Source of the DNA: Escherichia coli
Lineage (GTDB): Bacteria; Pseudomonadota; Gammaproteobacteria; Enterobacterales; Enterobacteriaceae
Reading direction: 5' to 3' (one strand)
Assembly: GCF_050920415.1 (NCBI RefSeq)
Contig: NZ_CP169309.1
Length of the DNA: 64,000 nucleotides
Position 1 is the first letter of the stretch; every line of letters starts with the position of its first letter. The notes beneath the pieces were generated by a model. The model was not told where the DNA came from. It ran no database searches and saw only the letters and a program-made list of their open reading frames with translations. Below are positions 61,545-61,909 of this stretch, piece by piece. Position numbers and translations under genes: made by a program.

Positions 61545-61573
61545 ATGCTCTGGATAAGGATTATCCAATTCTA

Positions 61574-61682
61574 AAAAAAAGCCCGAACGACTGTTCGGGC
61601 TTGTCTTCTTATATGTTGGAAAATCAGTGGCAATGCAATGGCCCAACAGAAAATAAAATCTGTGACAATAAAGGCATATAAC
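61574..61682 (-). ncRNA. micC: Hfq-dependent sRNA MicC (regulator of ompC/ompD)
   Basis: Reverse-complement reads GTTATATGCCTTTATTGTCACAGATTTTATTTTCTGTTGGGCCATTGCATTGCCACTGATTTTCCAACATATAAGAAGACAAGCCCGAACAGTCGTTCGGGCTTTTTTTT, matching the remembered MicC; divergent from ompN; 3' hairpin doubles as the pfo terminator. Confidence 0.8.
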
Positions 61683-61909
61683 CCGCGCAGAATAACGTAT
61701 AGCAAATTAAAAGTATAATTTTTATTTTGTATGTATTATCTTCGATACATTCACCAGACTTATTATCATTTCAGAGGAATTATTTGATTAAGGTTTTACT
61801 TAAGGCGTAACAAATGATATTTATCGGCTAACTGAACTTCTCCTTTAGGATGTTTTCATTCCCCGAAATGGGGATAAAAGGCAAATAAAATAACTAAAGG
61901 ATTTATTCA

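Follow-up and report, generated by a model that had tools for sequence, protein, structure and literature searches.

The small RNA gene micC between pfo and ompN in Escherichia coli, and a terminator hairpin probably shared with pfo

The window analysed here is a 64,000-nt stretch of Escherichia coli DNA. Within it lies a 365-nt gap (61545–61909), flanked by the pfo stop codon at 61544 and the ompN ATG at 61910. The genes and features of this locus are as follows.

58020–61544, plus strand: pfo (ydbK/nifJ), coding sequence for pyruvate:ferredoxin/flavodoxin oxidoreductase, 1174 aa (NCBIfam TIGR02176, 1631.6 bits, cutoff 911)
61545–61606, plus strand: putative pfo 3' untranslated region, its end placed 6 nt beyond the hairpin from the homologous K-12 ydbK end at 1437197
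61551–61567, both strands: 7-bp inverted repeat TGGATAA-GGA-TTATCCA in the pfo 3' untranslated region, downstream of the MicC 3' end and just before the A-run; a hairpin in the pfo-sense fold
61573–61682, minus strand: micC small RNA gene, 110 nt (RF00121 match and 99% identity to K-12 b4427)
61573–61580, minus strand: U8 tail of MicC, read as A8 in the pfo sense (T7–T10 in all 37 homologous loci)
61581–61600, both strands: palindromic terminator stem-loop, probably shared, GCCCGAAC-NNNN-GUUCGGGC, 8 bp, extendable to 10 bp at 61579–61602
61667–61682, minus strand: MicC 5' seed, nt 1–16, GUUAUAUGCCUUUAUU, a perfect 16-bp duplex with positions -30 to -15 of the K-12 ompC leader
61683–61909, both strands: micC-ompN divergent regulatory region, 227 nt, 30% G+C, with the putative ompN promoter and the leader within it
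61689–61694, minus strand: probable micC -10 hexamer TATTCT, at -12 to -7 from the annotated +1 (TATTCT or TATTAT across genera)
61713–61732, minus strand: block at micC -31 to -50, ATACAAAATAAAAATTATAC, invariant or nearly so in 22 loci of 6 genera
61910–63043, plus strand: ompN porin coding sequence, 377 aa (NCBIfam OmpC/PhoE/OmpF porin models)

MicC and its conserved surroundings

The gap contains a small RNA gene. When the 9 kb around the site was scanned with all Rfam families, MicC was the only family matched: RF00121 aligns over its full length (model positions 1–123 of 123) to 61565–61685 on the minus strand, at 124.4 bits (gathering score 90, E = 4.2e-20). In E. coli K-12 MG1655, micC (b4427) is annotated at 1437121–1437231, 28 nt from the ydbK stop codon and divergent from ompN. 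The window and K-12 share 99% identity across the whole gap, the 5' G of the window gene (61682) aligns with the annotated 5' end of b4427, and the locus, the 5' seed, the promoter and the approximate length (109–111 nt) are the same in both. A preliminary description made from the letters alone had placed a near-exact MicC at 61574–61682 on the minus strand. The Rfam match and the K-12 alignment agree on limits within 1 nt of that claim (61573–61682), and alignment to MicC, which had been proposed as the check, gave three differences from K-12 micC, with a covariance-model score above threshold. Judged by that score, by the 99% identity to the K-12 gene and by conserved synteny, the element is MicC.

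K-12 MicC is attributed to Chen et al. 2004, as cited in PMC5745476, and is a textbook porin-regulating small RNA. In the K-12 and Salmonella literature it is a transcript of about 109 nt that binds Hfq and represses OmpC, and the 99% identity leads us to infer the same for the window strain. MicC is a known small RNA in a known context: its position beside ompN and downstream of ydbK/nifJ is published, and common terminators of convergent genes are frequent in E. coli. The locus is ordinary and already known, and has little import beyond correct annotation. The RefSeq/PGAP annotation of a genome 100% identical to the window (NZ_CP169399.1) has no micC feature in the gap, so that a scan is needed for labelling.

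The flanking genes have familiar counterparts. RefSeq names pfo nifJ in identical genomes, and its K-12 counterpart is ydbK (b1378). The ompN product is 99% identical to K-12 OmpN and RefSeq uses the name ompN; OmpN also scores above the cutoff of the NCBIfam subfamily 'porin OmpC' (594 bits, cutoff 484), and some records give ompC as the name of the porin. A 601-nt query spanning the gap matched 5412 of 5426 complete E. coli genomes, with the flanks annotated nifJ and ompN; two genomes were 100% identical to the window over this query.

The arrangement extends beyond E. coli. An exact-pattern scan with the MicC 5' end over 100,044 species genomes returned 45 loci, 34 of which are true micC genes from Escherichia, Citrobacter, Salmonella, Klebsiella, Superficieibacter, Pseudocitrobacter and other Enterobacteriaceae. 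The other 11 were chance matches in unrelated phyla and were discarded. Our comparison set holds 38 sequences including the window and E. coli records, or 37 excluding the window. The order of pfo rightward, micC leftward and ompN rightward is common to the window, K-12 and the homologous loci of 6 genera (37 loci). The pfo stop codon lies 14–33 nt beyond the MicC T-run in every locus for which the flank was retrieved (28 nt in the window). The divergence of micC from ompN, also claimed beforehand, holds equally well: the ompN ATG stands 227 nt upstream of micC +1 in the window, and 221–228 nt upstream across genera wherever ompN is present. Because this gene order is kept across genera, the arrangement is ancestral to them. 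The spacing from micC +1 to the ompN ATG is steady, yet much of the sequence between conserved blocks in this interval diverges. Two loci, from Salmonella enterica subspecies arizonae and diarizonae, have micC and a convergent pfo, with no ompN homologue in the retrieved flank upstream of micC.

Within the RNA, conservation is concentrated at the ends. The 5' 20 nt are invariant in 36 homologues, a figure that is only partly informative since 18 of the 20 nt were preset by the search pattern. The middle of MicC is variable, with indels of 1 to 10 nt (1, 2, 4, 8, 10). At the 3' end the hairpin GACAAGCCCGAA...UUCGGGC followed by T7–T10 is invariant in homologues apart from the loop-closing pair. 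RNAalifold on a MAFFT alignment of the 36 homologues recovered the terminator helix only; the variable middle aligned too poorly to bear on the internal stem-loops of the Rfam model, and for these the covariance-model score serves as evidence.

The hairpin at the 3' ends of micC and pfo

A consensus scan found exactly one terminator-like site on each strand, at 61579–61602 in both cases, and no second terminator-like structure between the pfo stop codon and micC on either strand. Whichever strand is transcribed, the RNA folds into one and the same 10-bp stem, and the hairpin free energy is -13.8 kcal/mol in either sense; the z-score is -5.8 at the MicC 3' end and -4.5 in the pfo 3' untranslated region. 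The hairpin quoted in the preliminary description, gcccgaacagtcgttcgggc with a T-run, was recovered as the stem-loop at 61581–61600 and the T8/A8 run at 61573–61580. The homologues keep the stem unchanged apart from the loop-closing pair, where the two bases covary (CG in 30 sequences, UA in 4). The 7-bp repeat at 61551–61567 is found in other Escherichia species with the stem kept and the loop varying (TCC, TCG or TAA, read in the micC sense).

What follows the stem differs between the two senses. In the MicC sense the window stem runs into U8, and none of the 38 sequences has a break in its U-run. In the pfo sense A8 comes before the hairpin and an interrupted U-tract, UUGUCUUCUUAU, after it; this tract has U at 5 of its first 8 bases and passes the scan minimum. 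Across homologues the pfo-sense tail is UUGUC plus a variable stretch: its first 8 bases include 6 U in most Escherichia (UUGUCUUUUUAU), 5 in the window and 4 in the majority of the remaining loci, namely most Citrobacter, Salmonella and Superficieibacter. The window tract is one U poorer than that of K-12 because an A-to-G change in MicC falls there. Moreover, the pfo-side tract is the A/U-rich MicC segment 5' of its terminator, and its composition is therefore explicable by MicC constraints alone. These comparisons support an asymmetric sharing, in which the MicC-side terminator is canonical and conserved, and its pfo-side counterpart is weaker and has a U-rich tract in Escherichia only. In the window strain or elsewhere, the hairpin may terminate pfo less efficiently than in K-12.

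The three differences between window and K-12 MicC all fall toward the 3' end. The window RNA has A to G just 5' of the terminator (AUAAAAAG to AUAAGAAG); it has C to U in the 3' arm of the terminator (GUCC to GUUC), which mends an A.C mismatch of the majority E. coli allele; and its tail is U8 instead of U9. The fourth difference across the gap lies in the ompN leader. The K-12-type RNA with its downstream spacer is matched at 99% identity or better in 3565 of 5426 E. coli genomes, and the exact 85-nt 3' allele of the window in 7 of 5426 complete genomes. The K-12 hairpin has -9.3 kcal/mol in the MicC sense, where it carries the A.C mismatch, and -13.3 kcal/mol in the pfo sense, where the same position is a G.U wobble. 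The window stem is wholly Watson-Crick in both senses, at -13.8 kcal/mol each. Every non-E. coli homologue retrieved has the GUUC state of the window, and the window stem is therefore of ancestral type. The sole strain-specific feature of the locus is a rare terminator allele that restores the ancestral perfect stem. These natural alleles shift hairpin strength in one direction only (A.C versus G.U) and could be used for testing direction-specific termination.

Long reads from K-12 bear on the pfo 3' end. In Supplementary Data 1 of Yan et al. 2018 (PMC6131387), the SMRT-Cappable-seq sheet Rich_TTS gives one row for this transcript, from one dataset in rich medium. The reverse-strand ydbK transcript starts at 1440845 and ends at 1437197, with b1378 the sole gene fully covered. 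There are 203 reads at the start site; 49 reads end at the termination site and 9 pass through, one read ends within 50 bp downstream, and the median read-through is 93 nt. About 83% of the K-12 reads that reach the hairpin stop there (49 of 59). The operon table of the same study lists b1378 alone, in one transcriptional context in both media (PMC6131387). By alignment, K-12 1437197 lies 6 nt beyond the stem base on the pfo side (GGGC-UUGUCU), equivalent to about 61606 in the window. The hairpin of K-12 is thus flanked by the mapped ydbK end (1437197) and the annotated micC end (1437231), a geometry that, at 99% identity, would carry over to the window.

The MicC 3' end itself is absent from this K-12 dataset (PMC6131387), an absence that may stem from the design of the long-read library, and both micC and ydbK are missing from the Term-seq supplements of Adams et al. 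2021. The median K-12 ydbK read-through of 93 nt (1437104–1437197, about 61606–61699 in the window; 9 reads) would take these transcripts into the micC promoter, to a point about 17 nt upstream of micC +1.

It had been claimed that one palindrome serves both transcripts. The data support this for K-12, where the ydbK 3' end falls 6 nt past the stem; in the window, 61579–61602 is the sole site on both strands. Given the 99% identity to K-12, a single palindrome probably terminates both transcripts in the window strain, the pfo side being the weaker one.

Comparable arrangements are known. Bidirectional terminators such as ynaJ-uspE (Ju et al. 2019, according to bioRxiv 10.1101/2022.10.23.513370) and can-hpt (PMC6131387) likewise have one palindromic hairpin between convergent units. 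As these sources present the class, it resembles micC/pfo in having overlapping 3' ends on both flanks and unequal efficiency that tracks U-tract quality. Two differences stand out. One partner here is a 110-nt small RNA with a strong canonical intrinsic terminator on its side, whereas the class of Ju et al. 2019 is said in bioRxiv 10.1101/2022.10.23.513370 to be unlike intrinsic terminators and to depend on polymerase collisions. In our literature search micC/ydbK was not found named as a bidirectional-terminator pair, although the supporting data have already been made public. The locus offers a clean natural case in which the terminator of a small RNA also serves an mRNA, and K-12 read counts for it have been published.

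The MicC seed and the region between micC and ompN

The 16-bp duplex of the MicC seed with the ompC leader has a predicted energy of -32.0 kcal/mol. Shuffling the MicC 5' end 500 times gave -18.1 ± 3.0 kcal/mol and never as good a duplex. The window does not reach the strain's own ompC; among 5426 E. coli genomes, 5335 have the K-12 ompC leader unchanged. MicC is known to pair with the ompC 5' untranslated region and to block ribosome binding, and in Salmonella it has further targets in ompD, within the coding sequence, and in hilD (PMC5745476; PMC6337395; bioRxiv 10.1101/2021.08.03.454913). In several K-12 conditions MicC is weakly expressed or undetected. The ompN leader was considered as a further target and rejected: a degenerate copy of the ompC site, AUAAAAGGCAAAUAA (61868–61889, against MicC nt 1–21), pairs weakly (-14.6 kcal/mol), and 19 of 500 shuffles did as well.

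The micC promoter region is identical to that of K-12. Its -35 element is poor (TATACT at -35 to -30), and the conserved block at -31 to -50, remarked on in a study of Salmonella hilD (bioRxiv 10.1101/2021.08.03.454913), fits neither the SlyA nor the OmpR consensus. We infer that this block combines the weak -35 with an A-tract placed where the proximal subsite of an UP element would be. The gap has a single perfect TATAAT (61714–61719, plus strand); it lies inside the block and may belong to an overlapping promoter in the ompN direction.

Base composition sets this region apart, with 30% G+C from micC +1 to the ompN ATG against 53% in pfo and 49% over the whole window. In K-12 the 227-nt fragment drives ompN-lacZ, with the ompN start site taken from promoter prediction only (PMC5745476). 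The claim that the ompN promoter lies in the AT-rich remainder of the gap therefore stands at the level of the fragment, which has activity in the ompN direction (PMC5745476), and not at that of nucleotide position, for which there is a predicted start site only. A plus-strand sigma-70 consensus site at 61742–61769 was rejected as the ompN promoter: one such site is no more than chance would give, and its -35 is not conserved. The block TTTTAC-N7-GTAAC (61798–61823) has a half-site spacing of 12 rather than the 10 of an OmpR site, and we make no claim for it. Other conserved blocks in the ompN upstream region and leader, within 61798–61891, are TTAAGGTTTTACTTAAGGCGTAACAA and CTCCTTTAG[G/C]ATG; the leader also contains a conserved CCCC-GAAAT-GGGG hairpin (61862–61874) and a 12-codon open reading frame (61850–61888) without an obvious Shine-Dalgarno sequence.

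Regulation is known from K-12 and Salmonella. Fusions of micC and ompN are de-repressed in hns mutants (11-fold and 6-fold, respectively) and on sigma-E depletion, and OmpR slightly represses micC (PMC5745476). Conservation of micC downstream of nifJ and its control by SlyA and OmpR have been described, and in Salmonella SlyA activates it (bioRxiv 10.1101/2021.08.03.454913). An analogy, drawn in PMC5745476, is micF-ompC: there too a small RNA gene is divergent from one porin gene and represses another, and the intergenic region is AT-rich and subject to H-NS. The two systems differ in that OmpR sites are mapped at micF-ompC, while the micC block at -31 to -50 fits neither OmpR nor SlyA; moreover, ompC is highly expressed, whereas ompN is quiescent and its start site only predicted.

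A proposed working of the locus, and other readings

Taken together, the locus is very probably an Hfq-dependent small RNA gene in its ancestral enterobacterial setting, with a hairpin common to micC and pfo and with ompN divergent. micC would be read leftward from a promoter at about 61689–61732, the RNA starting at 61682, running through an 8-bp GC-rich hairpin and ending in U8 at about 61573. This canonical intrinsic terminator would also supply the 3' hairpin and U-tail typical of Hfq-dependent small RNAs. The MicC 5' end would pair with the ompC leader just upstream of the ribosome-binding site and so repress OmpC synthesis. pfo would be read rightward into the same palindrome, most transcripts stopping about 6 nt past the stem, near 61606; it would be monocistronic, and its mRNA and MicC would have 3' ends complementary over about 34 nt. 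ompN would be read rightward from the AT-rich, H-NS-silenced 227-nt region that it has in common with the micC promoter. The present analysis itself shows which RNA family the element belongs to, that synteny is kept, what geometry the hairpin has in both senses and that the seed is complementary to its target. The expression and function of MicC, the pfo 3' end and regulation by H-NS, sigma-E, OmpR and SlyA come from experiments in K-12 and Salmonella and, at 99% identity, would be expected to carry over to the window strain.

The hairpin could instead be the terminator of MicC only, stopping pfo incidentally and leakily, with substantial read-through antisense to micC towards ompN yielding a ydbK-ompN co-transcript, especially under induction by SoxS or RpoS. 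The pfo-sense tract is consistent with this, being interrupted, not U-rich outside Escherichia (4 of 8 U in most genera) and, since it lies inside MicC, explicable by MicC constraints; and 9 of the 59 K-12 reads reaching the hairpin go past it. SoxS-dependent co-regulation of ompN and ydbK is also published, going by a title cited in other papers. A 2012 study by Fabrega and colleagues is said to describe SoxS-dependent co-expression and co-transcription of the two genes; co-transcription would need read-through of the hairpin. Our literature search found no use of 'ydbK-ompN'. However, 49 of the 59 K-12 reads stop at the hairpin, the median read-through of 93 nt falls short of ompN, the K-12 operon is called as b1378 alone in both media, and the window stem is fully Watson-Crick in the pfo sense. 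We consider a terminator for MicC only unlikely.

Readings in which the RNA gene itself is idle or misidentified fare worse. The window micC might be a silent relic, unexpressed or non-functional owing to its rare allele; the exact 85-nt 3' allele is indeed confined to 7 of 5426 E. coli genomes, and MicC is weak or undetected in several K-12 conditions. This is highly improbable: the promoter region and seed are identical to those of K-12, the allele strengthens the MicC terminator stem (-9.3 to -13.8 kcal/mol) and agrees with what every other genus has here, and the covariance-model score is far above threshold. Alternatively, the conserved sequence might encode a small protein rather than an RNA regulator, two minus-strand open reading frames of 44 and 63 codons (61571–61705 and 61455–61646) overlapping the region. 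Both have TTG starts and cross the terminator hairpin. The homologues carry indels of 1, 2, 4, 8 and 10 nt in mid-RNA with an invariant 5' 20 nt and terminator, a pattern that fits a small RNA and not a coding frame. By this pattern the overlapping reading frames are ruled out, and we give the protein-coding reading next to no weight.

For the preferred reading, that of a small RNA gene whose hairpin also terminates pfo, a regulatory extension can be imagined. The antisense overlap of about 34 nt and the head-on layout might tie MicC output, and with it the OmpC level, to pfo transcription. SoxS and RpoS induce pfo in oxidative or stationary-phase stress. Coupling could run through polymerase collision at the hairpin, through read-through antisense across micC, or through base-pairing between the 3' end of MicC and the pfo 3' untranslated region. 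The balance between pfo and MicC could depend on the hairpin allele, the majority allele being weak in the MicC sense only and the window allele perfect both ways with a poorer pfo-side U-tract. We regard such coupling as quite unlikely.

In some strains the junction of the two transcripts is interrupted. E. coli KE55 (locus L003, 430–1310) carries IS200C inserted in the A/T-run between the pfo stop codon and the MicC hairpin, at about 61572–61573 in window coordinates. A junction query found the element at that spot in about 29 of 5426 E. coli genomes, and it occupies the same spot in a Citrobacter metagenome-assembled genome. Strains that carry IS200C here have no terminator common to pfo and micC; the pfo-facing end of the element bears a hairpin of its own, CCTCCGG-CATAG-CCGGAGG followed by T5.
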